Source of the DNA: Callorhinchus milii
Taxonomy: Eukaryota
DNA: 64,000 bases
Assembly: GCF_018977255.1 (NCBI RefSeq)
Contig: NW_024704742.1
Coordinates: 5,768,001-5,832,000 of the forward strand
Reading direction: 5' to 3'
The position numbers and the translations under genes were made by a program. Position 1 is the stretch's first letter; each line of letters opens with the position of its first letter. Positions 12,441-63,687 of this stretch are shown here, piece by piece. The notes below the pieces were generated by a model, which was given only the letters and a program-made list of their open reading frames with translations, searched no databases and was not told the origin of the DNA.

Positions 12441-12616
12441 ATGCTGGAAATCTGAAATAAAACTAGAAGTCGCTGGGAACGCTCAGCAGGTCAGGCAGCA
12501 TCTATGGAGAGAGGAAAGCGAGTTGACGTTTCATCAGAGACGAAATATCATCGACCTGAAACGTTGACGCACTTTCCTCTCTCCATAGATGCTGCCTCAC
12601 CTGCTGAGTGTTCCCA
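12441..12616. mobile_element. Same hairpin element family. Single-arm or partial copies at 13830-13925, 33593-33712 and 62672-62762
   Basis: gctgggaacgctcagcaggtcaggcagcatctatggagagagg...atcgacctgaaacgttgac...cctctctccatagatgctgcc. Confidence 0.75.
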
Positions 12617-15587
12617 ATCTCTCTGTGGGGTCTGTTTGGGTTCAGACATCGCCCACTTCATTCCTGCCTTGTGAGTTGCTCTGCTGCTCTGTAATACACT
12701 GCCTGTAATCCTTTCCGTCAAATAAATGTTCCTTTTGTAGGTAGTTTTCCATTACACACATTCCTGACTGATGAAACATGGAGTCACAAGCAAAAGGACT
12801 GGAAAGAATTGTAAAAATCAATGTAATGCTTTTATGCTGCCTGTGTTTAGTACACCATCCAAGAATTAAAACAAATGGGGCACTTTATGGAGCATAAACA
12901 CCGGTATAGATAGACCAGTTGGATCGAATGGCCTCTTTCTGTGCTGTATGTTCAATGTGGAAAAAAAAGGGCTCTCTTCATATTATAGGATGATTGGCTG
13001 CAGATAAGATAAGTAGAACTGAGGGCATGAGGGACATGCAGAAGGGCGGAGGTTGAGGATTGGGCATTTTATAATTGCAAGTTTGACTAAGACTTCAGGC
13101 TTAGAGAACCAAGTGAAGTAGATCTTGTCCTGGGTTATAAATAAGTAGGTAAAGGCCTAAATGTTGTGTTTGATCTGTGGAAGGAATGGGTTTGATAGGT
13201 CGATGCCTTTTCCTCATTGAATCCTCGCTGACGTTCCTTAATGATCAATCGGTAACTTCGTAGAGCAGTAAGGCTTAACATTGACCTGCTGTTTTCCACC
13301 GGAGCTGTTTGTCAGTAGCTAGGATACTTCCCCGCCCGGTTTTATCTTTGAGGGTGGGAAAAGTTAGCAACAAGAGTGTTTTGTTTTCATACGATTTTCT
13401 GGAATTTCAAGCCGGGCTCTGCCAACCACGCAAGCCCAAAGCACATAAAAGCCTCTTTATTCAGGTCACTTAGCTTTCCTATTGCCACAGCATTGAAAAG
13501 ATGTCAGCAGATAATGTGCAAAGCTAATTGTTCCAATTTTCTCTCCTGATAATATTGTCTCGTGCTGGGGTGGGAATCCACATGTGTGGAGTCTGTTTGC
13601 CAATACCACATGACCTGTTTTTTTTTCTGTTTAAGCCCGAACCTGTGCGGGTTGGCAAGATTCCCAACTATAAACCCTGGGTCAGAGGTTTGTGGGTTCA
13701 AGCCCCAGATCACTCCAGATAAATTGGTCACTGACTTCCTGCTGTTTGCCGGCCGGACATTGCTGGCCGTCAAAACGATTGTCCTACATCGTAATGATGA
13801 ACTCAAAAGTCCCAACACGGGACTCGAACGGGTCGCTGACCTTTCAGCCCTGAAACGTTAACTCACTTTCGTCTCTCCATAGATGCTGCCTGACCTGCTG
13901 AGTGTTCCCAGCGACTTCCGTTTTAAATCATTGTTCTGATGGTGCGGTGTTTTGAGCGTTTGTGAAGGAAACCCTGCTGGTTCTCTCTGACAGAGTAAAC
14001 GTTCAGCTCCTTCTTTAGAGTTAATACAGTTGGCAGCAATTTGGGTCATGGGGGGGAAAGGAGGCTTTACAGACTTTTCTACTCTTTCTCCTTTCCTTCT
14101 CCGCTGGGTTAAAGAGTCTCAAGGTCACCAGCTTGAGGTAAACTCATGTGCAGAAAAATAATTTGCTTATTGATGTGTAAAAGATTAGAGAACTTACGTT
14201 AATAAGAACATAGCCAAAGTAAAGGATGAGTTCAAGCTGTTAGGTCATTGACGTTCATCGAGTGTTACCCTGTAAGACCTGAATGTCCCTGAAGCTTTTG
14301 CCTCACCAACAGTTAAATATTTATATAACAGAACTTTCCTACAGAGAACGCAACCGCAGGAACCTCCAATCCTTGGTCAGTTAGTTTCTCATCTGTCCCC
14401 GGGAGGGTTTCCCAGTTTCCAGTTATATAAATGTAAAATTGTTGGGGCAGTGGGGCGGGGATTGTTCCCACTCAGCTCCTGTTAACCCTGCAAGCCAAAG
14501 GCCTAACGGGTAGGGTTGTCGTAGCTGGACAAACAGCAGGAAAGCTTGGCAAACAGTGCTCTCAATGACAAGTCATGTAGTTTTAGACGGTTAGACACCA
14601 GCAATTACCCCCAACACACAGTCTGGGTTCGCCAAGCCTTGGCTCTTGCCAACCTGTGCCTGATACTTTCTGGAATTCGGGTTCCCTCCAGGGAGAGAGT
14701 GTGCATTCCACTACAGCATGGGTTTCTGCATGTGTCAGACACCCAGCTGACCCCCCAAAAAACATTTTTGGTTTGTGATTATAGCTTCTGGCTGTGATTT
14801 CCCGGTTATGATTTCAGGACGTGAGTGAAGTGATGAGTGATCATCAGTGTCCAGCTTTCAAATTAAATTAATGTAACAAATTCATACGGTCTTTAAGTCG
14901 TTTCGCAAGCCACTTTGTGAGTCTGTCTCCATTTGCTGCAGCCTCCATCAGATACCTTCTGTATTTCTCAATTGTGCAGGACTGATGGTAAAGGAGTGAC
15001 ATTTGTGGGACTCTGCTGTACGCAATTGGCTGCGACGTTTCGCCCACAAAGTATACAGTCATTTCACTTTGCAGTATATCCTGTGAAGCGCTTTGAGACT
15101 TCTCGAAGACGTGATAAGGCGCTATATCAAATGCAAGGATTAATATTATATTATTATTATCTACATTTCTAACCTTTGTGAATCACAAAATATCCTCCCT
15201 ATTCTCATTTTTCCTCAAGGGCCATCTAACACTGATGGTAGCACAGCACATTAACTGGGCAGCAGGTCAGTGTAACTCCTGGGACAATCTATTTGCCTGA
15301 GCCTTGGTGGTAGCTCCCACTGTCAGCATGGTGGGGAGCAGAGAGAGGAGAGCTTGTCATATCTCTGCATTTGCAGCAGAAGGTGAAATCATGGTTGATG
15401 GTTACACATTATTGTCCTGGTATAAGTTAAACCATGAATGTACATAACAAATAGCCATAATGTACAGCAGAATGACTGTTAGTGGCAATTGAAGTAGTAT
15501 TAATAGAACATTTCAAAAAAGAACTGGATACTCACCATAAAAATAAACACATTGAGAGGTATGTGGAAAGAGCTGGATTGTGGAATT

Positions 15588-15925
15588 AATAATAATAATC
15601 CTTGCATTTGATATAGCTCGCGCCTTATTAAGTTGTGGAGTAACTGTATTTTGTGGGCAAAACACGGCAGTCAGTTTGCACACAAAGGTGTCCCACAAAC
15701 AATCAGTGAGTGACCAATAATATTTGGGGGATTATTGGCTAAGGACACCAGGAGAAGCTCCCTTCTCTTTTCAAACAGTCCTAAGAGATCTTTATCATCT
15801 ACCTGAACAGACAGATGGGACCTTGGTTTAACGTCTCATCCAAATGACGGCACCTCCGACAATGCAACCAGATCAGAACCCACAACCCTTTGACTTCGAG
15901 GCGAGAGTGCTACCACTGCTCCAAA
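15588..15925 (-). mobile_element. Deu-domain-type SINE (older family, different tRNA head)
   Basis: Minus strand cagtggtagcactctcgcctc...gtcggaggtgccgtc..ggatgagacgttaaaccaaggtccc, then a Deu-like core and the same tail. Related pieces at ~4585-4847 (+), 54375-54560 (+) and 57345-57562 (+). Confidence 0.75.
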
Positions 15926-17375
15926 CTGACGTACAATAATAATAATAAAAATGAGTTGCAGTTCATAGTTGCTGAATGTCCTCCTTGGGTGTTGAAATTG
16001 TCCATGGGACTGCATGATCCAGCTTTGGTGAATAAACTGTAAGTGACACCTGTACGAGAGCAAATGAACATCAATATCCACAGACTAATATATGGACTAT
16101 CATATTGGGCTGCGAGGTCGGGAATGTATTTTAGCTGCGCTCAGTGTATCAGGGATTGCATTTTCAATCTTTAATTTTAGCATCATATGCAAGGATTATT
16201 ATTGTAAGTTATCTCTACAGAATAATAAAGGGTAAAGAGTCATTTATTAAGCCCTTCCATCTGCTACGTTGGTGGTAGGACCACCTGATCTGATTTGCTG
16301 CCTTACACTAATTGGTGGTGGTTGAAAATTGCCCTGGGAAAAACAGCTTGGAAATAAGATTCTCTTCCAGGGAAACCCATGTAAGTCGTGATGACTCACA
16401 GGATTTCAACTCTAACCTAACCTGAACCCAGTCCTCATCTGTCAGTGCGATGTACATGCAAGGAGCTTCCTGGAGGAAACTCACTTATTCCTCGATTTCC
16501 TCTTTTTCAGACTCTATTGACGCTGACATTTTCCTGGTAAATCCTGTTTCAACCTCTCGTTTGCGAGTAACCAACTGCAAGTTCACATTCAATAAGCAGA
16601 GTGACGGTTGCTGCTCGTTCATTCAGGCTGTCCTCGTGTAGTGACCGCACAGAGCCATCAGTTTGCCTGTGTGGTAGAATAGCACCTCAGTGCAAACTGC
16701 CCCACATCTCCAGTCTAATACCCGAGTCTAATTTCATGGCTGAAGTGTCCTGCTGTGGCTCAGTCAGGATGGTTATTAATCACTCCAGTTTTCTTTGTGA
16801 GTTCTGAAGCCCACTGAATTCCCAGGTGACATTAAGGCCTCGTAATTACTCCTGAGTATCTATTATTCATGTAATTCACTGCCAGATGTCAGGTTTCCTG
16901 TAATAATGTACTATTTTTAGATAGAATACCATGACCATGGCTAATAACGTTTCCATAAATGCGGGTCTCTCTTAACGATTGAGAGCCTACGTGGACTATG
17001 GACCTACTGGATGTATCACATGCAAATTGTTCAAACACTGATCTTTCACTATTTGTTCACAATTACCTGATAACTCTTCAAGGCAACGTGAAAGGCGCTA
17101 TTTCAAATACAACGATTATTATAAATTAGGATTTCCCTTCATTAAGAAGTAAGGAAACGCTTGTTTTATCCAGTGACCAGCATGTGATACACCATATAGC
17201 GTGAGTGCGTCCCAGGTTTATGATATTGCATATTGTCCTCTGTGCAATATTACAGAGCCCCACAGAGGGTGATCTGTGCAGTTACAGGATTAATTTTCTA
17301 CATTCCTTTCATATTTACATTGCTGGAGGGTGCTGTGGTTCCAGGTTGAAGGGCCTCAGGCCCTCATTTTGTTTT

Positions 17376-17582
17376 GAAATAAAAACGGAAATCGCTGGGA
17401 ACACTCAGCAATTCAGGCAGCACCGATAGGGAGAGAAAATTGAGTTAAAGTTTCAGGTCGATGACCTTTCGTCAGAAATGTTAACTAGCATTCCTCTCTC
17501 CGTAGATGCTGCCTGACCTGCTAAGAGTTCCCAGCGACTTCTGTTACATTTGAAATTTCCAGCATTTGCAGTGTTTTGCCTT
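17376..17582. mobile_element. Same hairpin element family; intact CUGACGA...GAAA core on the minus strand
   Basis: Inverted arms; minus strand reads ttCTGACGAaaggtcatcgacctGAAActttaact. Confidence 0.75.
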
Positions 17583-17847
17583 TCGTCATCTTGTTTTGAT
17601 GTGAGCTTGAGCTCACTCTCTGCCCACACTCTCCTTTGTGGCTCACTCAGAATATGGTCACAGTGGCAGCTGTAGCTCTCTGGTACCTTGGCAAACGTCC
17701 ATTATTTATGAGTGGATCTGGATGGTGGATGTTGGTGAGGTGTTTGACAGTGCAGCTGATCCCATCCTGATCCCCAGACACACCAGGCATTGCTGGATAA
17801 TGATCAGGAGTGGGATTGCCGGCTGCTCCTTGTTAAATCTTTCCCTT

Positions 17848-21733: not shown

Positions 21734-22115
21734 GGAGTCCTGTAGCTCAGTGGTTAGAGCACTCGCCTCGCAAGCGAGAAGGCCTGGGTTCAGTTCCCGG
21801 CAGGGAGTAATGTTGGGCAAGTTTCCTTACTCCACACGCCTCTGTTTACCCAGCAGTAAATAGGAACCTGGTTGTTAAGCGTTTAGCAAATTACTTTTAT
21901 GGGGCTAATAAAAAAACTACCAATAATAATTTGGTCATTCAATCCACAACTGAATGTGGGACACTGCTGTGTGCAAATTGGCTGCCGCAGTTAGCTTACA
22001 AAATGCAGTCAATCCACTTTACAGTATATCCTGTGAAGCGGTTTAAGGTGTCCTCCTGAGGTGAAAGGTGCCATTATTGGAAAGTATAAGAATTATTATA
22101 TTGTTATTATATTAT
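21734..22115 (+). mobile_element. Full-length tRNA-derived SINE (long subfamily)
   Basis: Same head, plus an extra internal segment cctctgtttacccagcagtaaataggaacctggttgtt, core and tail. Confidence 0.88.
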
Positions 22116-27436: not shown

Positions 27437-28205
27437 GTGATCACTCTATCCTCCTCCATGGCCTCTTCTCTCACCTCAACCTTCATGGTTCTGTTCTGGG
27501 ATGGTTCAGATCGTACCTCTCACCCCGCCTCCACTTCATCTCTACAAACAGCTTCTCCTCCAGCCCCCGTACCGTCTCGTGTGGCGTTCCTCAGGGCTCT
27601 GTCCTTGGTCCCCTCCTCTTCAACATCTATATGCTCCCTCTTGGTGACATGGGATCAACTTCCACCTGTATGTGAATGTCACCCAACTGTATCTCTCTGC
27701 CTCCACTCTTGACTCCAGGACCACTGCTGTCCTGACAGAATGTCTGTCAGACATCAAGTCCTGGATGAGAGATAACTTTCTTTAGTTGGAACATCAACAA
27801 GACCGAGGCCCTCCTGAGTGGCTCCCGTCAGTGCCTCCACACCTCAGGCGCTGACAGCATCACCACCCACGGATGCACACTCCACCTCACTGAGCAGGTC
27901 CAGAACTTTGGCATCTTGTTTAACCCTCAACTATCCTTTCTACTCCACATCCGTGCCATGTCTCGCTCTGCCTTCCCCACCTCCGCAACATCACCCGGCT
28001 CCGCCACTGTCTCACACCGCAGAAAGCCTGATACACGCTTTCATCCCATCCAGGCTCGACTACGCAAACTCCCTGCTTGTCGGCCTTCCCAACTCCTCCC
28101 TTCATAGGCTGCAGATCATCCAGAACTCTGCAGCCCGTGTTCTCTCCCGCACCAGGCTCCGTGACCCTATCATCCGCATCCTCGCCAGACTCCACTGGCT
28201 TCCCA
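27437..28205 (+). mobile_element. L2 LINE RT fragment
   Basis: Closely similar to 52950-53725 ([35 protein letters not shown]); ends just before the minisatellite. Confidence 0.9.
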
Positions 28206-28225
28206 TCATCACCTTCCTTTTTGAT

Positions 28226-28945
28226 TGTGAGACAGTGTGTGTGTGTGGTTCACTGTGAGACTGTGTGTGTGTGGCTCACTGACAGTGTGTGTGTGTGTGA
28301 CTCACTGTGAGACAGTGTGTGTGTGACTCACTGTGAGACAGTGTGTGTGTGACTCACTGAGACAGTGTGTGTGTGACTCACTGTGAGACAGTGTGTGTGT
28401 GACTCACTGTGAGACAGTGTGTGTGTGACTCACTGTGAGACTGTGTGTGTGTGACTCACTGTGAGACTGTGTGTGTGTGGCTCACTGTGAGACAGTGTGT
28501 GTGTGGTTCACTGTGAGACAGTGTGTGTGTGACTCACTGTGAGACTGTGTGTGTGTGTGACTCACTGAGACAGTGTGTGTGTGGTTCACTGAGAGTGTGT
28601 GTGGTTCACTGTGAGACAGTGTGTGTATGTGTGGTTCACTGTGAGACAATGTGTGTGTGTGGTTCACTGTGAGACAGTATGTGTGTGTGGTTCACTGTGA
28701 GACAATGTGTGTGTGTGGTTCACTGTGAGACAGTGTGTGTATGTGTGGTTCACTGTGAGACAATGTGTGTGTGTGGTTCACTGTGAGACAATGTGTGTGT
28801 GTGGTTCACTGTGAGACAGTGTGTGTATGTGTGGTTCACTGTGAGACAGTGTGTGTGTGTGGTTCAGTGTGAGACAATGTGTGTGTGTGGTTCACTGTGA
28901 GACAGTGTGTGTGTGTGTGGTTCACTGTGAGACAGTGTGTGTGGT
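28226..28945. repeat. Minisatellite CACTGTGAGACAG(TG)n(GTT/ACT), ~24-32-bp units
   Basis: About 25 tandem units with a variable (TG)n tract. Confidence 0.95.
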
Positions 28946-32543: not shown

Positions 32544-35500
32544 AATATCTCCATTATTATAGCATGCGACTATTAGGATGGTAGAAGATGGACGAGATGG
32601 ACCTTGGTCTGTTTTTTCATCCAGCAATTCCTACGTTACTCAAGTGAATTGACTCTATTTTGTGGGTGAAAGCGGCAGCTGATTGCGTAGAGCAGAGCAG
32701 AAAGACAAGAGGACAGGTTCAGTGTTGCAAATGACAATTTCAGGATCAATATCAGGAAGTTATTTCTTTACTCACAGTGGGGTCCCTGTGCTGGTATGGG
32801 TTGCAAGGAAGTGTCTTTGAAGCCAGGACTTTGAACTAATCTAAGAAACAACTTATAATGATATAAATGAATAAAGATATATATATATATGATTGAAGCA
32901 TCTTGAGATCTTGTGAGATGCTGCAGCTACAATTTCCTCACGGTAAAGCCCGACACCTTGTGGCTTAACTGAGCACTGTAAAAGCAACTTTAAAACATAT
33001 CCCAGTGTCGTCGCTTTTCACTGTTACAACACTGGAAAATAATTACGCCCTGGAAACCCAGGGAATGTGAGTTTTAATCCTCTTTCCCCCTCTTCCTCCC
33101 CGTGATGAACTATTAGCCACCGGACCTGTCAACAAACTAACCAATGCCTGAGGGCTGAGCTTTCTTCATTCCATTTAAAACCTGAGCCACAGTTGACCTC
33201 CGACACCAGGCTTTCCCAGTTTTATTACCTTCTTTATTGAGCTTGTGGAACGGTTTACCTATAGCTGTGAGCCTGCTGGACAGCTTGATACTGAGGGGGA
33301 TGCAATACGTTCTGTAACAGTACATCACATTTGTACCGGGCCTTTCATGTCAGGAGGACGTCCCAAGAGGCTGGACAGTCAGGTTTACGCACCCGAGCTG
33401 GTGGTTGGGATCAGGAGGGCTGGAGGGCGGGGAGGGGAGGGTAGGGGTAGGAGGTTGACCGAAGACACGGGCGAAGAGAAGGGTCTTGAGACGGATCTTG
33501 AAGGAGGAAGGGAGAGGGCGAGGTGGAGGGACTGTGGGATGGAGATCCAGAGGGCGGGGGCGGGGGTGGGGGGGGCAGAGTGGCTGAAGGTGAGAGAGAG
33601 AAAAGTGAGTTAACGTTTCGTCAGAAAGATCACCGACCTGAAACGTTAACTCACTCTCCTCTCTCCATAGATGCTGCCTGACCTGCTGAGTGTTCCCAGC
33701 GACTCCTGTGTTTACGTTACATAAATAATGGTTTAACGTGAAACCGTTTATTCCCCGAGACAAACATCAAAATGTATACAGGTTACTTGAGCACTGCCCT
33801 CTCAATCTGTGTTTTCCCATCAGGTATTTTGACACCCACCCGAATACGAGAAGGGAATGGATTGCTGACACCGAGGGGGTAAGTACAAAATATGTTCACA
33901 CTCAAAATACACACTCACTGCAAGGGTTCCCACTGCTTGTTGAGCTAAGACCACCCTGTTCGTTAGGGCTTTAGCTTGCAGGGTCACTCCCTGTCACTCC
34001 CTGCCCCGGTGACTGGTCTGCCCTTCCACGTTATCAACTGGGGAGGAGACGAGGGGGGAAGAGGGGTAGAAGTCTCCTCAACGCTGCAGTGTATAAAGAA
34101 AATCATTCTTCGCCACGACCTCAAGAGCTTGAGGTCTCTCATCCTTTCTGTGTAGGGAGAAAATTCAAGGAAAACGCTCTACAAACGCACGGTCACTGCA
34201 GTTCACAGCTATCCCGTGAATTATTTTGACGAATTGTTATGTCAAATGCAGGGATTGCTTTTGTCACCGTGGTTAAGGCACGTGGAGACATATTTAGCTG
34301 TGCGGGTGTCAGACGCCAGTGTTTTAGCTCCTGCCCTAGGTTTCCAGGCTGAGACGATCAATCTTTGTGCCCAAGTCCAAGGTGTGAGGCAGAGATACAC
34401 AATTCCCGTACATTCCATAGTCAGGAACAGAGAGGAAATCATTATTATTAACCCCCCAAATTGACAGTAGTCTATTCACCTCATTAAATTAGATCAACAT
34501 AAAGGTCTGTTGTTTCAAACAATGATGACTGACATGAAAATATCTGCGGTATCAGAGGATAACAGTGTATTCACAATGAAGGTACTATTGTTCAGGATTA
34601 ATCTAGTATTTTGAAATATACTGACAGTGTATTCTCTCTAATACACTGGTGTTACTCTAATATCTGTTATTCTCTCCAAATACCCAATGCCTTTGCTTCA
34701 CTGCCCCAAGTGTTTCCATTAAGTGCTTGAGTGGGAATTGATTTGATTCTGCCCTCCTTTGAAGGGAAGAAGCAAGTGAATAGTTAACCATAGATAAAAG
34801 GCCCGTCAATTTATTTTATTTTGCAATCCAGTCATTGCTACAGCAATCCTGGTTACCGGGAGGGGGAGGATGGGGGTTAGAAATCTCTTGAATGCTGCAC
34901 TGGTTGTTAGTCGATTGGCGGATCACTTTTCCAGGGGTAATAATTCCTTCAAAATAAAAATTAATAATAATAAATTGGTCACTTCAATCCACGACTGTTT
35001 GTGGGACACTGCTGTGCGTAATTGCCTCTGCGTTTCACCCACAAAATATACAATCAATTCACTTTACAGTACATTCTGTGAAGCGCTTTGAGACGTCTCG
35101 AAGACGTGATAAGGCGCTATACCAAATGCAAGCATTATTATTATTATTATTCCAAACAAAATGATTCTTCACAACAAGCAACAACCACGAGGCTCTTATC
35201 GTTTCTGTGTAGAGAGGAAATTCAGCAAAATGCTCAGCGGGAACCACAAGCACCACTGCACCAGCAACGGGGAATAAAACAAGCAACGAAGAAAAGATAA
35301 ACGAAGAAGCAAAATGTAAGTATTATAGGTGACTGTCTGTACTCAGACGGATCAGTCTCCCAACTGCCTGCAGCCTGAACTTGCAGCCTCTTTGATACAG
35401 AAACAGAATTATCAGATGTATTGAGTGCACTTCATGCACTCGATATATCGAGGCACTTAAACAACAACAACAACAACAAACCCTCTGTGGAGTCTCTAAT

Positions 35501-40345: not shown

Positions 40346-40442
40346 CTGAAAATCAAGAGGATTCACAATGAAACCAATATACGCCCCATAGTGTGACCGT
40401 GCAATATTCAGCCTGTCGAGCACGTTCCACCATTATTATAAA

Positions 40443-40680
40443 CAACAGAAGTCGCTGGGATCACTCAGCAGGTCAGGCAGCATCTATGGAGAGAGGAAAG
40501 TGAGGTAACATTTCAGGTCGCTGACCTTTCGACAGAACTGGGGGACCCGTGTCGTGCTCTTCCAACAGCTCCCAGTTCTGCCGGAAGGTCATTGCCCTGA
40601 AACGTTAACTCACTTTCCTCTCTCCATAGATGCTGCCTGACCTGCTGCGTGTTCAGATTTCCAGCATCTGCAGTATTTAG
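40443..40680. mobile_element. Inverted-repeat (hairpin) element, Penelope-like pLTR remnant with degenerate hammerhead cores
   Basis: Arms of ~85 bp, cagcaggtcaggcagcatctatggagagaggaaagtgag...gaactggg / cccagttc...ctcactttcctctctccatagatgctgcctgacctgctg, around a ~30-nt spacer. Confidence 0.75.
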
Positions 40681-41284
40681 TCTTTTTCCCCCCCACCATT
40701 TATTAGACATTAAATATTAGATATTATTATTAGATATTTCCCTTTTTCAATATCCCATCATAACCTTATTGCCCCAACTTTCTCAATCAGCAATACGTTC
40801 CACATTTTTGCAACCCTCTGCGTGTGAAGAAATCTTTCCTGATTCCCACTTTCTTTTAGAGGCCCGTGTCAGCATTCATTATCTCTTTTCAAAAATGCTG
40901 GTGAATGCCGGTCCCGGCAATGTAATCGTTTGAATCCTGTGAGCAGATGGGATTCAAACAAGTCCAAGCAGATATCCCAGGTCGCTGATGGCTGGCAAGC
41001 ACTGTGAGGAGAGGTGGGCCGACGGGGGTCTAATTATCTTTTTTTTTACATATTTATGTTTCGGCCCAGTCCAGATAAGCCCGAGTTCCAGATCCCCAGA
41101 GTTCAGTAAGTCAGGGGTTTACCGTACTCCAAATGAAGTCTGACCACCACTTCCTCGCGTCTACTACGCTGAATTACGTTCACTCAAGATTTCTGATGTA
41201 TGTAACCTTCAATCGCATTCTTAAGTAAACACCCTTCCACCTCTTTGCTTTTATTTCTTCACTTTTTTTCACACTGGTACATAC

Positions 41285-48700: not shown

Positions 48701-51700
48701 GTGTAGTGGTGGAGGTGATGGTGTAGTGGAGTTGGTGATGGTGTAGTGGTGGAGGTGATGGTGTAGAGGTGTTGGTGATGGTGTAGTGGTGGAGGTGATG
48801 GTGTAGTGGTGGAGGTGATGGTGCAGTGTAGTTGGTGATGGTGTAGTGGTGGAGGTGATGGTGTAGAGGTGTTGGTGATGGTGTAGTGGAGTTGGTGATG
48901 GTGTAGTGGTGGAGGTGATGGTGTAGAGGTGTTGGTGATGGTGTAGTGGTGGAGGTGATGGTGTAGTGGTGGAGGTGATGGTGCAGTGTAGTTGGTGATG
49001 GTGTAGTGGTGGAGGTGATGGTGTAGAGGTGTTGGTGATGGTGTAGTGGTGGAGGTGATGGTGTAGTGGTGTTGGTGATGGTGTAGTGGTGTAGGTGATG
49101 GTATAGGGGGTGTAGGTGATGGTGTAGTGGTGGAGGTGATGGTGTAGTGGTGTAGGTGATGGTGTAGAGGTGTTGGTGACGGTGTAGTGGTGTAAGTGAT
49201 GGTGTAGTGGTGGAGGTGATGGTGCAGTGGTGTTGGTGATGGTGTAGTGGTGGAGGTGATGGTGTAGAGGTGTTGGTGATGGTGTAGAGGTGGAGGTGAT
49301 TGAGTAGAGGTGGAGGTGAGGGTGTAGTGGTGGAGGTGTAGAGGTGTTTGTGATGGTGTAGTGGTGTTGGTGATGGTGTAGTGGTGGATGTGATGGTATA
49401 GTGGTGGAGGTGATGGTGTAGTGGTGGAGGTGATGGTGTAGTGGTGGAGGTGATGGTGTAGTGGTGTTGGTGATGGTGTAGAGGTGTTGGTGATGGTGTA
49501 GTGGTGTTGGTCATGGTGTAGTGTTGTTAGTGTAGAGGTGATGGTGTAGTGGTGATGGTGTAGTGGTGTTGGTGATGGTGTAGAGGTGTTGGTGATGGTG
49601 TAGTGGTGTTGGTGACGGTGTAGTGGTGATGGTGTAGTGGTGTTGGTGTAGTGGTGTTGTTGTAGTGGTGATGGTGTAGTGGTGTAGTGGTGTTGGTGAT
49701 GGTGTAGTGGTGTTGGTGATGGTGTAGAGGTGATGGTGTAGTGGTGTTGGTGATGGTGTAGAGGTGTTGGTGATGGTGTAGAGGTGTTGGTGATGGTGTA
49801 GAGGTGTTGGTGATGGTGTAGAGGTGATGGTGTAGTGGTGTAGTAGTGATGGTGTAGTGGTGTAGTGGTGATGGTGTAGTGGTGTTGGTGATGGTGTAGA
49901 GGTGATGGTGTAGAGGTGGAGGTGATGGTGTAGTGGTGATGGTGTAGTGGTGATGGTGTAGTGGTGTAGTGGTGATGGTGTAGTGGTGTTGGTGATGGTG
50001 TAGAGGTGATGGTGTAGAGGTGGAGGTGATGGTGTAGTGGTGATGGTGTAGTGGTGTTGGTGATGGTGTAGTGGTGATGGTGTAGTGGTGTAGTAGTGAT
50101 GGTGTAGTGGTGTAGTGGTGATGGTGTAGTGGTGTAGTGGTGATGGTGTAGTGGTGTAGTGGTGTTGGTGATGGTGTAGTGGTGATGGTGTAGTGGTGTA
50201 GTGGTGTAGTGGTGTTGGTGATGGTGTAGTGGTGTTGGTGATGGTGTAGTGGTGTAGTGGTGATGGTGTAGTGGTGTTGGTGATGGTGTAGTGGTGTTGG
50301 TGATGGTGTAGTGGTGTAGTGGTGATGGTGTAGTGGTGTTGGTGATGGTGTAGTGGTGTAGAGGTGTTGGTGATGGTGTAGAGGTGTAGTGGTGTAGTGG
50401 AGTTGGTGTAGTGGTGATGGTGTAGTGGTGTTGGTGTAGTGGTGATGGTGTAGTGGTGTAGTGGTGATGGTGTAGTGGTGTAGTGGAGTTGGTGTAGTGG
50501 TGATGGTGTAGTGGTGTAGTGGAGTTGGTGTAGTGGTGTAGTGGAGTTGGTGTAGTGGTGATGGTGTAGTGGTGTAGTGGTGTTGGTGTAGTGGTGTAGT
50601 GGTGATGGTGTAGAGGTGTTGGTGATGGTGTAGTGGTGTAGTGGAGTTGGTGTAGTGGTGTAGTGGTGTTGGTGTAGTGGAGTTGGTGTAGTGGTGTAGT
50701 GGTGTTGGTGTAGTGGTGTAGTGGTGTTGGTATAGTGGAGTTGGTGTAGTGGAGTTGGTGTAGTGGTGTAGTGGTGTTGGTGTAGTGGAGTTGGTGTAGT
50801 GGAGTTGGTGTAGTGGAGTTGGTGTAGTGGAGTTGGTGTAGTGGAGTTGGTGTAGTGGTGTAGTGGAGTTGGTGTAGTGGTGTTGGTGTAGTGGTGTAGT
50901 GGTGTAGTGGAGTTGGTGTAGTGGAGTTGGTGTAGTGGTGTAGTGGAGTTGGTGTAGTGGTGTAGTGGAGTTGGTGTAGTGGTGTAGTGGTGTTGGTGTA
51001 GTGGTGTTGGTGTAGTGGTGTAGTGGAGTTGGTGTAGTGGTGTAGTGGTGTTGGTGTAGTGGAGTTGGTGTAGTGGTGTAGTGGAGTTGGTGTAGTGGTG
51101 TAGTGGAGTTGGTGTAGTGGAGTTGGTGTAGTGGAGTTGGTGTAGTGGTGTTGGTGTAGTGGAGTTGGTGTAGTGGTGTAGTGGAGTTGGTGTAGTGGAG
51201 TTGGTGTAGTGCAGTTGGTGTAGTGGTGTAGTGGAGTTGGTGTAGTGATGTAGTGGAGTTGGTGTAGTGGAGTTGGTGTAGTGGTGTAGTGGAGTTGGTG
51301 TAGTGGAGTTGGTGTAGTGGAGTTGGTGTAGTGGTGATGGTGTAGTGGTGTAGTGGTGTTGGTGTAGTGGTTGTGGTGTAGTGGAGTTGGTGTAGTGGTG
51401 TAGTGGAGTTGGTGTAGTGGAGTTGGTGTAGTGGTGTAGTGGAGTTGGTGTAGTGGAGTTGGTGTAGTGGAGTTGGTGTAGTGGTGATGGTGTAGTGGTG
51501 TTGGTGTAGTGGTTGTGGTGTAGTGGAGTTGGTGTAGAGGTGTAGTGGTTATGGTGTAGTGGTGATGGTGTAGTGGAGTTGGTGTAGTGGTGTAGTGGTG
51601 ATGGTGTAGTGGTTGTGGTGTAGTGGAGTTGGTGTAGAGGTGTAGTGGTGATGGTGTAGTGGAGTAGTGGAGTTGGTGTAGTGGTGTAGTGGTTATGGTG

Positions 51701-51735
51701 TAGAGGTGTAGAGGTGTAGTGATGATTTGGGGGTT
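45720..51735. repeat. ~5.9-kb G/T-rich tandem satellite filling ERI1 intron 1
   Basis: 20-mer GGTGATGGTGTAG(T/A)GGTG(GA/TT) grading into a 14-mer GGTGTAGTGGAGTT and an 8-mer GGTGTAGT; almost no C on the + strand. Confidence 0.97.
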
Positions 51736-51770
51736 TTGACAATGGTGTAAATTGTTTCAATGCCACTCAC

Positions 51771-51779: not shown

Positions 51780-52175
51780 GTCTGTCTCGAGCGGCGGCTT
51801 CCGGGCCGTCTCCGGAAGTGCGTCCGCTCGCTTCCGGCTCGGTTCCCCCCCCCCCCCGGCGCCGCGCTGCCAGCGAGGCGCGTGCGCGGGGCTCCGCCGT
51901 GACGTGTGAGTCCTCGGGCGGACGTGAGGGAAGGGTGGGTGGGAGGGGCGGCCGGTGCCAGGCCCCAGTCACGTGGCCAGGGCCAGCCCTCCCCCGCAGT
52001 CACGTGGCCAGGGCCAGCCCTCCCCAGGAGTCACGTGGCCAGGGCCAGCCCGCCCCAGGAGTCACGTGGCCAGGGCCAGCCCGCCCCAGGAGTCACGTGG
52101 CCAGGACCAGCCTCCGCCCTCCCTGCTGACCTTCGACCCCCCCCCACACCCCCCACCCCCACCGATCACGTGGTC
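51780..52175 (-). promoter_or_regulatory. CpG-rich ERI1 promoter / 5' UTR
   Basis: ETS/GABP-type CCGGAAG motifs at 51798, 51812 and 51831. NRF1-like GCGCGTGCGC at 51878, CRE half-site GTGACGT at 51899, GC boxes and an E-box array. High CpG density directly upstream of the ATG. Confidence 0.75.
51960..52120. repeat. 31-bp tandem repeat x5 carrying GTCACGTGGC
   Basis: Motif starts at 51968, 51999, 52030, 52061 and 52092. Confidence 0.95.
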
Positions 52176-52393
52176 GAGACGTCCCAAAGCGCTTCTCAGG
52201 ATACGCCGTGAAGCGAATTGACTGTGTGTATCTGTGGGCGAAACGCGGCAGCCGATGGCGCACAGCGCCGTCCCGTCCCCCCCCCACACACACACAGTCG
52301 GGGGTGGGGTGACCGCCTACTTTTCAGATCGGGGGTTAGTTACCCCCAGAAAAGCCGTCCGTCCCCATCTCTCACCTCCCACTCCTCTCCTCC

Positions 52394-52696
52394 GAGTCCT
52401 GTGGCTCAGTGGTTAGAGCACTCGCTTTGCAACCGAGAGACCTGAGTTCAATTCCGGGCAGAGGGCGAAACCTTGGGCAAGTTTCCTTACTCCACACAGA
52501 GCCTAATAATAATCCCTCCAAAACAAAACAATAATAAATTGGTCATTTTCAATCCACGACTGTTTGTGGGACATTGCTGTGCGCAATTGGCTGCCGCGTT
52601 CGCCCACAAATATACAGTCAATTCACTTTACAGTGTGTTCTGTGAAGCGCTTTGGGACGTCCGCCCGACGTGAAAAGCGCTATATCAAATGCAAGG

Positions 52697-52732
<36 letters not shown>
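52394..52732 (+). mobile_element. Full-length tRNA-derived SINE (same young subfamily)
   Basis: Nearly identical to 32218-32543, with a (TTA)~12 tail. Confidence 0.92.
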
Positions 52733-54160
52733 GAGGTCCTGGTACGAGTCGTCGCGTCCCAGCTCCGCTCCTTTCTCTCTCGCCATTCCCTCTTTGAACC
52801 CCTCCAATCCGGGTTCCGCACTGCCCACAGCACAGAAACAGCCCTGGGGGTCACAGTCACTAATGACATTCTGAACATCTGTGATCAGGGCTCCCTCTGC
52901 CTCCTTGTCCTCCTCCACCTCTTTGCCGCCTTCGACACTGTCAAACACTCCATCCTCCTACACCGCCTCTCCGTTTTACTCAATCATCACGGACCTGCCC
53001 TTGCCTGGTTCAATTCCTATCTCTCTCACCGTCTCCACTTCGTTTCCTCTAACGGTTTCTCCTCCAGTCCCCACACGGTCACATCTGGCGTTCCCCAGGG
53101 CTCTGTCCTTGACCCTCTCCGCTTTAATATCTAAATGCTCCCCCTTGGTGACATCATCCGCAGACATGGGACAATTTCCACATGTATGCAGATGACACCC
53201 AACTCTATCTTTCGGCCTCCACCCTCAACTCCGGGACCACTGCTGTCCTGACAGACTGCCTGTCGGACATCAAGCCCTGGATGAGGGCAAATTTCCTACA
53301 GTTGAATGTGAACAAGACTGAGGGTCTCCTGATTGGCTCACGCCAGCGCCTCTACACCTCAGGCTCTGGCAACATCACCCTCCATGGTTGCACACTACAC
53401 AACTCACCAGCCAGTCAGGAACCTCGGTGTCTTGTTCGACCCTCAACTGTCTTTTCTCCCCCACATTCAAGCCATGACCCGCTTTGCCTTTCCTCACCTC
53501 CATAACATCACCCGACTCCTCCACTACCTCACCCCTCAGGCGCTGAAACTCTTGTTCATGCCTTCATCACCTCCAGGATCGACTATGCAAACTCCCCGCT
53601 TGTCAGCCTTCCCAACCACTCCCTCCACAGGCTGCAGATAATCCAGAACTCTGCAGCCCGTGTCCTCTCCCGCACCAAACTCCGTGACCCCATCTCCCCC
53701 ACTCTCGCCCGACTCCATTGGCTCCCTATCCTTCAGAGGATCCAGTTCAAGATCCTGGTCCTCACATACAAAGCCCTCCATGGCCTCGCACCACCCTACC
53801 TCTGCGACCGCCTAACCCCCTACCAACCCGCCCGCTCTCTCCGCTCAGCCGGCTCTGGCCTGCTCCACGTCCCCCAACCCACCCGCCCCGCCATTGGTGG
53901 GAGAGCCTTCAGCCACTCTGCCCCCAACCTCTGGAATTCCATCCCCCAATCACTCCACTTCGTCCCCTCCTTATCCTCCTTCAAATCTCGCCTCAAGACC
54001 CTCCTCTTCGACTATGCCATCGGCCACCTCCCTTCCCCTCCCTTCCCCCCCTCCCCCACCAATCCCAGTTTGGGTCTGAAGTGCTGTACTCTGTCCAGCG
54101 CCTTGGGACGTCCTCCTGACGTGAAAGGCGTGATACAAATGTAATCTGGTCGTTGTTGTT
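52733..54160 (+). mobile_element. L2-clade LINE, 5'-truncated and decayed (RT to 3' tail)
   Basis: [40 protein letters not shown] and FSHSAPNLWNS motifs with stops and frameshifts. 3' tail agcgccttgggacgtcctcctgacgtgaaaggcg followed by (GTT)n. Confidence 0.93.
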
Positions 54161-55838: not shown

Positions 55839-56704
55839 TTAATAATAGGGTCCCTTATTTTCATAGTCTGTGTAGCTGGGCCATTCAGGGAACACACCGT
55901 AGGAGCACCTTAGACCACCATACTGATCAAACTCCATCCCATACCCAGGCAGATGGTGGGCTTCAGCTAATATAGCATCCAGTGGCTGGGTGGGTTTGGT
56001 TGTCTCCGTAGCACATTTCAGCTCCGATCTTATTATTCTGTAATTTTGCCCCAAGTTGCTGTCCCACCAAGTTTTCCCCTCACTTTCATAACGAATTGCA
56101 AATTCCACCCTTTCATGCGGGGCAATGTATTCTGGCAAATGAATTCAAAGGCAAAAGTGTCTCGATCTGACCCGCCGTACGGGTCAAGGACATAGCGGCA
56201 GTCATGCTCTCGGAAACTCTTCCAAGTGTCAAACGTTATCCTCACTTTCAAAGATTTTTCGAACGCCAGGTTTTTCACCTTGACCGTTCCCACAATGAGC
56301 TTGTCCTCTAACATACAGTTTTCGAGGCAGACGGTGTCAGATTCCAGACGTTTCTCAAAGTCCACGTAATCTGCTGTCGGTTGGTCAAAGTCCAACAACA
56401 GACTGTCTTTGTCTACAGTCTTGAGGCTTAACAAATTACTGATCAGTTCATTTATACGAAAGGAAATATCAAACTCATTCAGGTCGAACAACTTCACTGA
56501 AGTCAGTGGCAGGCCTTTGCTGTCGGCAAAGGAAACCCTTTTGTGCTCCTTGGTTCTGTGATTAGTTTCTGGTGAATCCTCGTTGATGTGAAGGTGGATA
56601 CAGGGCCGCAGAGGCTTGTTTACATACATCGATCTCTTGGTTCTGTAACTTACTCTTTGAATTGGAGCGTGCATATATAGCTGCATGGCTACATCAACTG
56701 GCAT
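55839..56704 (-). CDS. PPP1R3B: PPP1R3B (glycogen-targeting PP1 subunit GL), single coding exon with an apparent 1-nt frameshift at ~56139
   Basis: RVxF motif KRVSFAD and CBM21 motifs GTVKVKNLAFEK and WDSNLGQNY. The C-terminus CSYGVFPEWPSYTDYENKGPYY is PPP1R3B-like rather than PPP1R3C-like. The gene neighbours ERI1 and MFHAS1. Acceptor ccctcag| at 56733/56732. The coding sequence is split over two overlapping ORFs. Confidence 0.9.
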
Positions 56705-57562
56705 AGTGGATCAAGCGAACACTTCAAGCCCACTGAGGGGAAAAGAAGAAAAAAAAGGGTTAATTATTTCAAGCTGATGAGCGAAAGCACCAAATGTAAT
56801 GAGTTTCAGGACGTGGGAGATAAAATTAGTACAAGCCTTTATTTTGGGGGGTCATTTTGGCCCCTTCTTGAAAGCATGGACCCCAAGAATCGGGTGCTTC
56901 CCTCCTCTCTTTGAAGGTTCGCATCACCGTACCTCTTTGCCCACGCTTTCAGTCATCTCTCCTCTCCTCCCCTCTCTCTCTCTCTCTCTCTCTCTCAGCT
57001 CCAGTGCCCAGCCAGAACTGTCAAGCGCTTTGGGATGTTCTCCCAACGTGAAAGGCGTACAAGTATAAATTGTATCCTAAGATACAAATCGCTAAAATCA
57101 TTAGTGAGACACTACTTGTGAGTACGGTGTCATATAAATGCAAGCTGTAAAATAATAATAATAATACAGTGGATTGCCTGTATTTTGTGAGCGAAACTCG
57201 GCATCCAGTTTGCGCACAGCAATGTCCCACAAACAGACGTGAAGTGAATGATCAATTTTATTTGATCATTCACGCTATACAAATGTAATCTTGTTGTTGT
57301 TGCATATGTTAAGACACCCGGCTAACAAAAAAAATCATATGTATTCTGAAGTCTCATCTGCTTGATCAGGTGGATTTTAAAGATCCAATGGCACTTCAAA
57401 AAGACAAGAGAGTTTTCCTGGTGTCCTGATCAGTAATTCCCCAGATTAAAAAAAACGGTTGATCACTCCCAAGGCTGTTTCTGGGACATTGCTGTGTGCA
57501 AATTGGCTGTTGCATCTTCTTACAATATTCAGAAAACTCTTTGGGACATTTTAGTATGATAA

Positions 57563-59408
57563 AACAGTACTTTTAGAAGCACATAAAGGAAAAAAAGGTT
57601 AGTTAAAGGTAGGGTGGGGCCAATCAAAGACAATGACGGCCATCTTGTTGTGGAGGCAGAGGACATGCCTGATGTACTGAACGAGTACTTTTCACCTGTC
57701 TTCACAACGGAAACAGATGCCCCAGATGCCATAGTATTGGATGACAGGGTAGAGGACATAGATCAGATTACTATAGACAGAGAGAAAGTTCTGAAAAGAT
57801 TGACTGGGCTCAAAATTGATAAGTCACCAGGACCAGATGGGTTTGACCCAAGGTTGCTGTGGGAGATATGGGTTCAAATAGCGGAGGCTTTGGCCATTAT
57901 ATTTCGATCGTCATTGGACACAGGAGTGGTGCCAAGAGACTGGAGAGTGGCTAATGTTACCCCACTCTACAAAAAGGGGCATAAAGAAAAGCTCGGAAAT
58001 TACAGGCCAGTCAGCCTAACTTCGGTAATAGGAAAGCTACTGGAGACCGTAATCCGGGACAGAATAAATCTCTACTTAGAGGAACACGAGGTAATTAGAG
58101 ACCCCCAACATGGATTTGTTAAAGGCAAATCTTGCCTAACAAATCTAATAGAATTTTTTGAAGAGGTGACTGTGAGGGTTGATGAGGGAAATGCGGTGGA
58201 CATTATTTACATGGATTTTAAAAAGGCTTTTGACACAGTACCGCATAAGAGGTTAATAAAAAAACTGGAGGCCCACGGTATTAAGGGGACAGTAGCCGTT
58301 TGGATTAGGAACTGGCTGAGTGACAGAATGCAGAGGGTGGTGGTTAATGGGTGTTTCTCGCAATGGAAGGAGGTGTGCAGCGGTGTCCCCCAGGGATCGG
58401 TATTGGGACCACTGCTCTTTCTAATATATATTAATGATCTGGACTTGGGCATAGAGAGCACTATTTCCAAGTTTGCAGATGATACCAAGTTAGGTAGGGT
58501 AGTAAATAGTGAAGAAGATTGTGACGGACTGCAGGCAGACATACACAGAATGGTGGAATGGGCTGACATGTGGCAGATGGATTTCAATGTAGATAAGTGT
58601 GAGGTGATACACTTAGGTAGGAAAAATGATAGGAGGCAATATAGACTTGGTAGCTCAATCTTAAGGGGGGTGAACGTACAGAGAGATCTGGGCGTTCAAG
58701 TAAGCGATTCATTGAAGGTGGCAGAGCAGGTAGATAGGGCAGTAAAAAGGGCATTTGGTGTACTGAGCTTCATTAGTAGGGGCATAGAGTATAAGAGTAG
58801 GGGTTATGCTTAATCTGTACAAAACACTGGTTAGGCCTCAGCTGGAGTACTGCGTCCAGTTCTGGGCACCTTACCTCAGGAAGGATATTAAGGCACTGGA
58901 AAGGGTGCAGAGGAGATTCACGAGAATGATACCAGGAATGGGGAACCTTAGCTATGAGGACAGGCTGGAGAAGTTAGGACTTTTCCCATTAGAGCAGAGA
59001 AGGTTACGCGGGGACCTGATAGAGGTCTTCAAGATCATGAAAGGTTTCGACAGGCGAGATAGGGAAAAGCTGTTTCCACTGGTAGGTGTGTCTGTGACTC
59101 GTGGTCACAGTCTTAAGATATCTACCAAAAGAAGCAGAGGGGAGGTTAGAAGGAATGTTTTCACTCAGCGAGTTGTTAGAATTTGGAATGATCCGCCCGA
59201 AAGGGCAGTGAAGTCCAATTCGATAACAGCTTTTAAGAGAGAACTGGATAGGTATCTGGAGAAGACAGGTTTGCAGAGTTATGGGGAGAAAGTTGGTGAG
59301 TGGGGTTAATAAAAGTCAGTTGCTCTGTCAAAGAGCCGCACAGACTCGATGGGCCGAATGGCCTCCTTCTGTGCCGTAACATTCTATGATACTATGATTC
59401 TATGATAA
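57563..59408 (+). mobile_element. CR1 LINE, 5'-truncated (ORF2 reverse transcriptase + 3' UTR), relatively young
   Basis: [43 protein letters not shown] and LEYCVQFWAP motifs. One frameshift at ~58803, an (ATTCTATG)-type tail, and flanking TATGATAA duplication. Confidence 0.95.
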
Positions 59409-59411
59409 GGC

Positions 59412-61999: not shown

Positions 62000-62270
62000 T
62001 AAACCATTTAGAAGTGAAATCAGGAGGCATTCTTTCACCCAAAGGGTAGTGGTAAATCTGAAACTCTCTCCCCCAAAAGGCTGTGGATGCTGGATCCATT
62101 CACATCTTCAAGACTGAGGTGGACAGATATTTGTTAGGTCAGGGTATCAAGGGATATGGGGCAAGGGCGGGTAATTGGACTTGAGGTACAGATCAGCCAT
62201 GATCTTATAGAATGGTCGAACAGGCTCAAGAGGCTGAATAGTCTACTCCTGTTCCTATGTTTCTATGTTC
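62000..62270 (+). mobile_element. CR1 3' end fragment
   Basis: ttcacccaaagggtagtgg...gatcagccatgatcttatagaatgg...ctactcctgttcctatgtttctatgttcct; a related piece lies at ~38070-38185. Confidence 0.8.
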
Positions 62271-63687
62271 CTTTGACTCCTCTCCACTACCCGCTCCCTT
62301 CGCTCAGCTGTCTCCGGCTTCCTGCATGTCCCTCGTCTCTTCCACTCCACCATCGGGCAACCATGCTTTCAGCCGCTGTACCCTGAGACTCTGGAACTCT
62401 CTGCCTCAATCCCTCAGCCTTGCCCCCTCCTTGTCCATCTTCAGATCACACCTGAAAACCTTTCTCTTTGACCGTCTCTGCAATCATGTTTCCCCTTTCT
62501 CTGGCCTTGGTGTCAAGCTCTGCCACAGTTAAGCGCTTAAGATGCTACCCTGTCTGATGGGGGTTAGATAGATGCAAGTTTTTATTGGTGATGCTTTGAG
62601 TCATTCTGACAGATAAAAGCATTATAAAAAGATTAATTTGGAGTTGAAGAAGGACATCTTCTTCAATATAAACACAGAAGTCGCTGGCAACACGCAGCAG
62701 GTCAGGCAGCATCCATGGAGAGAGGAAACTGAGTTAACAGTTTCAGTTCAATGACCTTTCGCGAGGACATTTGTTTAGTCAAGTGTTTTGTTTAGCTCTA
62801 TTTATAAATGCCTCACAAAGTATTGACATGGTAGGTGATAAGTTATAAGTTAACTCAACTAGCACCCCTTGTCTCTTTCAGCTTTCCCCTCTTGGCAGAT
62901 TTATCCCATCCAGCGAGTACTTTTATTTTCTATTTTTTTTACTTCTTATATGCAGTTTCCATTTATTTGTGTTAAACTTAAATTGTCATTCACTATCTGA
63001 CGTGTATATCCTATCAAGCTGTCATTGCAAAACCTTTTCGAATTCCACAGTTCCTTCCAACTTGGTGTGATATTTCCCCTAATTTGGAATAATCTTTCCA
63101 GCATCGATCACAAAAGATTGCAATCAATGTGAATTATGTCCTAGGGGAGGGGTGGGGGATAAAACAATTGTAGTGATCTTACTGTGAGCCTGGCTGAGCT
63201 TAGCTAACATTTAACAGCACATACATAGGTACCCAAGCAAAGACTTTCCTGCTCTCGGATCCAGTTCTATCCTGGGAGATGCAATTGGGTCACTGAGAAG
63301 CAAACATTTACTAATTGTGTCAGTGTTTGTCTAAGTGTCTACCTTTGTGTGTCTCAGTGGCACCACAAAATAAAGTCAACAAATTGAGAAGGAACTGAAC
63401 TATATGTGCTCTTACTACTCAAGGTTGGTAGCGAGGCCACTTTTCAACATTTATTAACTGCAATATAAATAAAATATCACCAAAAAGGCAGGTAGCCACA
63501 AAACTTAAATTCAGTCCATGAAACGTTGTTAAAGCAAAGTTTCTGGAGCTGTACCTTATAATTGAAGGGTGATTGCATGTTAAGAATATTGGTTGCATTT
63601 GATACAGTCCATAATGTTGAAAGTCCTTCATGGGCAATTGCTGACAAATATACTTACTGTATTTGTAGGCAGACACATTTTAATATA

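Follow-up and report, generated by a model that had tools for sequence, protein, structure and literature searches.

Endonuclease-bearing Penelope-like elements (EN+ PLEs) are defined by a reverse transcriptase (RT) joined to a C-terminal GIY-YIG endonuclease (PMC4209133; available part of PMC8557442). PLEs are on record from every lineage of vertebrates, the single chondrichthyan in the survey among them (available part of PMC4350176), and the accessible part of a 2026 preprint describes Neptune and Poseidon PLEs together with hammerhead retrozymes in one chondrichthyan. The hammerhead-bearing PLE is already well known, and the family treated here is at most a further member. It was studied in a stretch of 64,000 nucleotides (nt) from Callorhinchus milii (NCBI RefSeq assembly GCF_018977255.1, contig NW_024704742.1, positions 5,768,001 to 5,832,000 of the forward strand), here called the window, where it is present at six loci. 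These loci are very probably fossil insertion products of an autonomous EN+ PLE that carries a minimal type-I hammerhead motif in its 3'-terminal region. The literature search, with Repbase and Dfam outside its scope, found no paper naming the hammerhead of this family, and supplement file 2 of PMC4209133 contains no shark or chimaera entry.

The repeat family and its link to an RT/GIY-YIG reading frame

The six loci represent a single repeat family. When one copy was compared with the window by blastn, matches were obtained at 12446-12616, 13831-13924, 17341-17560, 33593-33714, 40438-40654 and 62668-62761 only, which upholds the six copies listed in the initial annotation (at 12441, 13830, 17376, 33593, 40443 and 62672). 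An 18-nt anchor of the family gave nine matches in the window with at most three mismatches, against 0.03 expected and a maximum of one in 100 shuffles. Altogether ten arms were counted across the six loci. ORF (open reading frame) fragments of the element were not found in the window, where only arms are present.

In the 991.5-Mb genome the family has thousands of copies. A similarity search with the 40443 hairpin produced 2,676 first-look candidates, and 40 of them were scored. Single arms measure about 100 nt and match the query with 90-95% identity. The 31-mer adjoining the cleavage site has 361 exact genome copies, and 8,278 contig records of one sequencing run align to an arm. Several single-arm genome copies extend upstream into a conserved common sequence. 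A search with this upstream sequence gave 30 loci, all 30 with the arm present, the 5' ends of which vary from 0 to about 740 nt further upstream, and about 1.15 kb is common to four longer copies.

The longer copies encode ...FTC..NLVYCIRCSRCGLLYVGETKHRLGD..AEHL, a GIY-YIG motif located about 300-450 nt upstream of the hammerhead motif, and ahead of it a zinc-knuckle-like C-x4-C-x2-C, which reads C-QRRR-C-NT-C in the frames of the loci L061, L068 and L075. The open frame of L068, 470 amino acids (aa) in length, includes the RT motif YIDD, the C-x4-C-x2-C and the GIY-YIG endonuclease, with an arm about 240 nt downstream of the ORF and an inverted arm upstream of it. Generally in the longer copies the arm (about 100-150 nt) sits about 240-300 nt downstream of the RT/GIY-YIG ORF, and the 3' ends of ORF-bearing copies align collinearly with the arms at 84-93% identity. 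A database search with the L068 frame returned 189 relatives at E <= 1e-5; the best has 62% identity (E 1.1e-171), and sharks and rays are the source of the closest ones (56-63% identity). Several longer relatives carry both PF00078 (RVT_1) and PF01541 (GIY-YIG), as does the relative P0020 with 47% identity over 89% of the L068 query (E 1.5e-114). Also the nearest clusters in a protein atlas have the same RT and GIY-YIG domain set (score 0.97). The longer copies, the L068 frame and the domains of its relatives thus connect the family, as had been proposed, with an RT and GIY-YIG ORF and not with the terminal inverted repeats of a DNA transposon.

Two of the longer genome copies have features of their own. 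At L062, ~3474-3560 (+), ORF-internal sequence from about 1 kb upstream is joined directly to the hammerhead region; this copy is internally deleted, and template switching may be the source of the deletion. A near-full-length copy at C2:42.55 Mb is located inside a short tandem repeat (L077 600-700, L078 510-600) with a unit like AACTATGTACAATATGTGTGGATG, a setting that may reflect the microsatellite or AT-rich target bias of such elements.

End sites, hairpins and target duplications

On the motif strand the arm reads ...CCCAGTT-CTGACGA-A-AGGTC-ATC-GACCT-GAA-ACGT-T-AACTCACTTTCCTCTCTCCATAGATGCTGCCTGACCTGCTGAGTGTTCCCAGCGACTTCTGTTTTTAT and continues for about 70 nt from the motif to a first, short end site, ...CUUCUGUUUUUAU. 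Some copies run 38 nt further, this stretch being the tail, and end in ...GCAGTATTTTGCC (second end site ...UUUUGCC). Copies terminate at either of these two sites, 38 nt apart: six of the eight single arms have the short end and two the tail. Both end classes are abundant also among the loose ends of the contigs aligned to the arm, whose RNA origin is conjectural. The short ends adjoin A/T-rich flanks. Each of the 11 genome hairpins has the tail on one arm and not on the other, and so do three of the four window hairpins. The 5' ends are scattered relative to the cleavage site, though the sample is small. Target duplications are 12-14 bp long; they are supported at 17376, 40443 and 12441 and weak at 33593 and 62672.

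The positions of the hairpin junctions and the centre sequences differ from copy to copy (11 genome and four to five window hairpins), which suggests that each hairpin arose in its own event and was not copied from a single hairpin master. Relative to the first box, the window junctions range from about -25 to +22 nt, and several fall on the stem II palindrome.

Head-to-head inverted arms, noted earlier for several of the copies, are present at four of the six loci; the fifth locus, 13830, has only an inverted stub and the copy at 62672 is a single arm. The hairpin insertion at 12428..12616 (-) consists of a tail-bearing minus arm (12428-~12533) and a shorter inverted plus arm (12539-12616), which pair over 12474-12533 / 12557-12616 (60 nt, 90% complementary). 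Its hammerhead region is broken in both arms: in the minus arm CTGATGA runs straight into AACGT, without stem II, and C3/U4 are missing from the plus arm. The candidate target duplication of this copy, 12415-12427 / 12617-12629, agrees in 11 of 13 bases, a score reached by 40 of 1000 shuffles. The single arm at 13831..13924 (+) ends at the short 3' end site and is without the CUGANGA box, and its 5' edge (13831-13846) carries part of the stem II region, 14-16 nt, as an inverted stub. A target duplication was sought for this copy and none was convincing, the score being reached by 868 of 1000 shuffles.

The hairpin insertion at 17378..17585 (+) has an inverted minus-sense arm with the short end (17378-17480) and a direct plus-sense arm (17475-17585) that begins within GAAA and bears the 38-nt tail. 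The arms pair over 17384-17454 / 17475-17545 (71 nt, 75% complementary), and the target duplication TCATYTTGTTTTGA at 17364-17377 / 17586-17599 matches in 13 of 14 bases (score reached by 4 of 1000 shuffles). The hammerhead core at 17442..17475 (-), CUGACGA-A-AGGUC-AUC-GACCU-GAAA, with both boxes and an intact 5-bp stem II, makes this the sole one of the ten window arms with both boxes at the correct spacing. Its helix III is the non-palindromic ACUU, and the 5' strand of helix I has been replaced by the other arm.

In the hairpin at 33594..33728 (+) a 26-nt inverted arm (33594-33619) is followed by a direct arm from ~33624 to the short end site, without a sense CUGANGA box; the pairing (33594-33619 / 33640-33665) extends over 26 nt with 92% complementarity. 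The weak target duplication of this copy has a score reached by 106 of 1000 shuffles. The hairpin insertion at 40439..40692 (+) is formed by an inverted minus-sense arm with the short end (40439-40545), a centre of about 28 nt and a direct arm (40559-40654), paired over 40459-40542 / 40571-40654 (84 nt, 89% complementary), and a tail fragment at 40652-40686 is preceded by an internal deletion. The cores are mutated in both arms (CUGUCGA, CUGCCGG), and this is the sole window copy with AGUU directly ahead of the box; the target duplication, 40427-40438 / 40693-40705, has a score reached by 25 of 1000 shuffles. The single arm at 62664..62763 (-), 5'-truncated inside the first box (CUCGCGA), extends to the short end site, and its helix III contains one additional base. 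Its candidate target duplication, 62651-62663 / 62764-62775, is weak (score reached by 135 of 1000 shuffles).

The hammerhead motif

The motif is composed of helix I AGUU/AACU, the box CUGACGA, an unpaired A, a 5-bp stem II, GAA, the palindromic ACGU and the triplet GUU. It was analysed in an alignment of 59 arms, including 57 of 68 anchored arms and two window arms added by hand; the 11 arms left out had the motif region truncated or unalignable. The consensus of the 59 arms holds both boxes and the composite hammerhead motif, and 87.2% of the pair cells are paired compared with at most 45.4% when the partners are slid. Both boxes stand at the correct spacing in 27 arms and the first box has decayed to CTGACAA in eight and to CTGATGA in five. 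At least four of the five stem II pairs are kept in 55 of the 59 arms, and the unpaired A after A9 (between A9 and 10.1) in 56. The palindrome ACGU is present in 28/59, and another 22/59 have forms expected from CpG decay (ATGT, ACAT, ATAT). Helix I, AGUU/AACU (GACU in subfamily B), is fully paired in 34/59, and position 17 is U in 58/59. Since the alignment keeps the motif as its consensus amid decayed copies, the ancestral copies were intact and the present ones are decaying neutrally.

The arms divide into two subfamilies. Subfamily A, which includes all the window copies, has AGGUC-AUC-GACCU and AACU past the cleavage site, and subfamily B has GGGUC-GUG-GACCC and GACU past the cleavage site. 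The closing pair of stem II (10.1-11.1) is AU in 41 arms, GC in 10, GU in three and other in five (n = 59), with a compensatory A-U/G-C change between the subfamilies. Between them the arm is the sole non-coding part that can be aligned (82% identity), the rest of the 3' untranslated region not aligning.

In the genome the perfect A motif, TTCTGANGAAAGGTCNNNGACCTGAAACGTTAAC, has 128 copies and the perfect G-C variant (B) 396, with none for the reversed-pattern controls. Both boxes at the correct spacing together with TTRACTC gave 2,738 genome matches and the reversed control none, and when a 1.14-kb element copy was shuffled 20,000 times, the strict hammerhead descriptor never matched. The sequence AGUU-CUGACGA-A-AGGUC-AUC-GACCU-GAA-ACGU-U-AACU, which the initial annotation had assembled from the window copies, is accordingly a true consensus of the family (128 + 396 perfect genome copies), yet it is intact in no window copy. 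Also the expectation that a genome-wide consensus would keep CUGANGA, GAAA and the pairing of stem II was borne out by the 59-arm alignment and the genome motif counts, and the description of the copies as Penelope-like remnants with a minimal type-I hammerhead motif, in which a palindromic ACGU replaces helix III, has held.

The strict minimal-hammerhead descriptor had no match on either strand of the 64-kb window. Neither did the exact pattern CTGANGA...GAAACGTTAAC match there, because every window copy is mutated. Judged from the sequence, the window motif has decayed, mainly by CpG loss, and is almost certainly inactive.

Weighing the origin of the repeats

Several results count against an EN+ PLE with a hammerhead as the source of the six loci. 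On the protein side, a Pfam search of the 470-aa L068 frame gave no match, and the GIY-YIG domain was matched on one decayed frame with 17.5 bits, below the cut-off of 22.6 bits (E 0.0053). The near-full-length copy, C2:42554449-42556961, has an arm downstream of the ORF (L078) and none within 1.1 kb upstream (L077), hence no direct pair of pseudo-long terminal repeats (pLTRs; n = 1). The pLTR label given to the arms earlier holds for the 3' end alone in this copy, and "3'-terminal region" is therefore the safer wording. Within the motif, only seven of the 59 arms and none of the ten window arms are wholly intact; the commoner subfamily A has A10.1-U11.1 and not the G-C pair called highly conserved in PMC4209133; and the covariation amounts to essentially one inherited compensatory change, the remaining departures being one-sided decay. 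Beyond the change between A and B, no convincing independent compensatory events were found in the 59 arms; about three of 100 listed two-box genome sequences show restored pairs by eye and were not counted as evidence. The Rfam hammerhead covariance models, which expect a closed helix III, had no match in the window at the gathering score, and at E <= 10 none in 12300-17700 or in five intact-motif loci, so that the motif goes unrecognised by these models even in intact genome copies. The minimum free energy (MFE) fold of the monomer keeps stem II and helix I and pairs part of the core with ACGU, the hammerhead fold being 2.6-2.7 kcal/mol less stable. Finally, published minimal hammerheads of PLEs cleave poorly in vitro (PMC4209133), and in a lizard PLE cleavage depended on protein and was dispensable for insertion (PMC11167929). 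The homodimer is predicted as a plain extended duplex and not as a hammerhead dimer; thermodynamic folding is no guide to a motif that relies on tertiary contacts.

The hairpins could in principle be units of a distinct non-autonomous family, retrozyme-like or SINE-like (short interspersed element), copied as hairpins by Penelope machinery, which is close to what the initial annotation had suggested. With 75-84% identity, many genome matches extend across the two arms of the 40443 hairpin, but this sample was chosen by likeness to one hairpin and overstates the uniformity of the hairpins. With junctions and centres different in every hairpin checked, both arms of a hairpin always of one subfamily, arms collinear with the ORF-bearing copies and no head-to-tail tandem units at the six loci, a family of this kind is improbable. 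The window fragments look like 5'-truncated, dead-on-arrival insertions and not like a self-propagating non-autonomous family, the varying hairpin junctions being the reason why truncated products of an autonomous element are favoured. Still less credence can be given to miniature inverted-repeat (MITE) or foldback DNA transposons whose terminal inverted repeats merely resemble a hammerhead. Such elements would account for palindromic loci with short centres, a shape mirrored by sub-threshold Rfam matches to microRNA (miRNA) hairpins (MIR1507 36.5 bits, gathering score 73), but not for asymmetric arms with a 38-nt tail on one arm only, for the common single arms that continue upstream into the RT/GIY-YIG ORF, for varying 5' ends or for target duplications of 12-14 bp instead of a fixed short length. 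It is likewise very improbable that the host has co-opted intronic hairpins as small-RNA precursors: long, near-perfect hairpins do give miRNA matches (MIR7724 66.6 bits against 100, at L011), but all of these are far under the gathering scores and scattered over unrelated miRNA families, and the copies decay neutrally.

Truncated insertions of an autonomous PLE, each locus having kept no more than the terminal ~100-150 nt at its 3' end, thus remain the preferred explanation, and the window copies are best read as neutral intronic or intergenic debris without function. The insertion mechanism that we infer from the anatomy of the copies and the published biochemistry of the lizard PLE begins with a nick made in the target by the element protein. 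Reverse transcription would start at one of two internal sites, giving the two end classes, and would usually halt early, leaving 5'-truncated copies. Priming would often take place from both target strands, and the head-to-head joining of two short complementary DNAs (cDNAs) would then leave a hairpin that has a single tailed arm and is flanked by a 12-14-bp target duplication. The thousands of copies show the tail defined by two start sites and the rule of one tail per hairpin cleanly, and provide an independent fit to the lizard in vitro model.

In the master elements, a role in cleavage is suggested by the design of the motif and by the literature. A ribozyme without a closed helix III would cleave only as a dimer paired through ACGU or with the help of protein, and its cleavage would trim multimeric transcripts of the element. 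Concerning the ribozyme only, it is possible, if doubtful, that the masters keep the segment as a protein-binding or RT signal, or as a cDNA-joining site, without self-cleavage in vivo. This would agree with the conservation between subfamilies of the whole arm beyond the motif, with the window junctions near the first box and on the stem II palindrome, and with the poor cleavage already mentioned. In the lizard experiments insertion proceeded also without cleavage and no reads ended at the cleavage site (PMC11167929), and some very successful PLE clades are without hammerheads according to the available part of PMC8557442. Against this reading, the catalytic boxes have been retained exactly, as have the GUU triplet and the compensatory stem II change, and other PLE hammerheads cleave as dimers or with protein (PMC11167929; Lünse et al. 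2017, as cited in the available part of PMC6765202).

A further idea, which we consider unlikely, is that the hammerhead region acts also in the cDNA, where its self-complementary stretches, namely the stem II hairpin and the palindrome ACGU/AACGUU, would seed the head-to-head junction. For a pair of same-polarity cDNAs, one primed from each target strand, such palindromes would be the only means of annealing. The junctions are inside the motif in four of five window hairpin-type copies and about 25 nt upstream in the fifth, a small sample, and short cDNAs alone could explain junctions inside the motif. If the idea were true, the motif would have a structural role in integration, separate from catalysis, and the hairpin junctions and 5' ends would be a genomic fossil record of events at the ribozyme.

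For annotation, the six loci should be masked as PLE fragments and not taken for genes, regulatory hairpins or microRNA precursors in the region of ERI1 and the PPP1R3-type gene; beyond this their importance is small. The hundreds of intact minimal hammerheads in the genome, in two subfamilies with a compensatory stem II change, are usable in assays of dimer or protein-assisted cleavage.

Host genes and other features of the window

The window PLE fragments lie in or near ERI1 and a PPP1R3-type gene. ERI1, named earlier as a host gene, was confirmed by an exon at 44182-44571 (-) matching solved structures of the ERI1 3'-5' exoribonuclease (E 3.2e-31), and the PPP1R3-type exon at 56033-56710 (-) has a CBM_21 (CBM21) glycogen-targeting domain (E 1.2e-18).

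Four tRNA-like Rfam matches on the plus strand were found at 21739-21804, 32223-32285, 52399-52461 and 37135-37208, with 51.3, 43.5, 35.3 and 33.5 bits, respectively. Three of them are almost identical in sequence, so the matches probably mark the heads of tRNA-derived SINEs of one family rather than tRNA genes. At ~45761-51766, about 6 kb is covered by very long, repetitive minus-strand open frames of up to 1,981 aa with units like HHYTITNTSTPSP, a pattern that suggests a tandem array or minisatellite rather than a gene. An open reverse transcriptase frame of LINE (long interspersed element) type, 408 + 173 aa, is present at 57587-59309 (+) (RVT_1 E 6.9e-35) and is unrelated to the Penelope-like family; decayed LINE-like frames are located at 52646-54144, 27769-28258 and 7678-8327. 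Another abundant repeat (...GGGACACTGCTGTGCGCAATTGGCTGCC..., ...TGTGAAGCACTTTGTGACATCTAGAAGACGTG...) forms inverted pairs at 52166-52673 and 10076-10471, and it also adjoins several genome copies of the PLE family (flanks of L018 and L068).

Comparison with known systems

The fish and vertebrate EN+ PLEs of the Neptune and Penelope/Poseidon groups (Arkhipova 2006; Craig et al. 2021, available part of PMC8557442) have the same single ORF, with the RT followed by a C-terminal GIY-YIG. The same part of PMC8557442 describes for EN+ PLEs also the heavy 5' truncation with an inverted truncated copy adjoining the main copy, a tail of 30-40 bp that is often at one end only, and a hammerhead motif near the 3' end, all of them as in this family. 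The C-x4-C-x2-C linker ahead of the endonuclease is common to this family and the Neptune-type elements described there, a likeness that is not a phylogenetic assignment to a clade. The family differs from EN+ PLEs in that its one near-full-length copy is without a direct pLTR pair.

With the minimal hammerheads of PLEs (Cervera and de la Peña 2014, PMC4209133) the family shares the type-I topology with CUGANGA and GAAA boxes, the unpaired nucleotide between A9 and 10.1 and the short (4-bp) helix I. Also the lack of a closed helix III is the same, the palindromic positions 15.2-16.2 (ACGU) implying action as a dimer, as are the thousands of dispersed, mostly single copies and the opposite-strand pairs with 100-700 bp between them. 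This family has a stem II of 5 bp, the Schistosoma families one of 7-8 bp (PMC4209133). The window-type subfamily has A10.1-U11.1 instead of the usual G-C, any activity being predicted here from sequence alone, and the family differs from the PLE minimal hammerheads also in being unmatched by the Rfam models. The non-LTR retrozymes, as presented in the available parts of Cervera and de la Peña (2020, PMC7229834) and of the preprint by Li et al. (2026), have the same type-I hammerhead, short palindromic helix III and origin from PLE termini, but they are described there as head-to-tail tandems giving circular RNAs, and none of the six loci is a tandem. Identity with them was rejected, all six window loci being single arms or head-to-head pairs.

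In PAc, a Poseidon PLE of Anolis carolinensis (Frangieh et al. 2024, PMC11167929), two adjacent internal RT start sites define an optional tail, and both target strands are cut and extended, which fits the head-to-head arms with one tail found here. The insertion sites of PAc are AT-rich (PMC11167929), as the flanks here are A/T-rich. The hammerhead of PAc overlaps the ORF start in a tandem pLTR-ORF junction, whereas here it is located about 240-300 nt past the ORF stop. PAc is known from in vitro biochemistry and the present family from the DNA.

Twin priming of LINE-1, said to go back to Ostertag and Kazazian in 2001, reportedly yields truncated insertions with an inverted 5' segment and a single target duplication. 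The truncation, the inverted segment and the flanking target duplication of these inversions are the same as in the present family. LINE-1, however, uses an AP (apurinic/apyrimidinic) endonuclease and this family GIY-YIG, and while the segments of LINE-1 are adjacent, the two arms here cover the same 3'-terminal stretch and form a hairpin.

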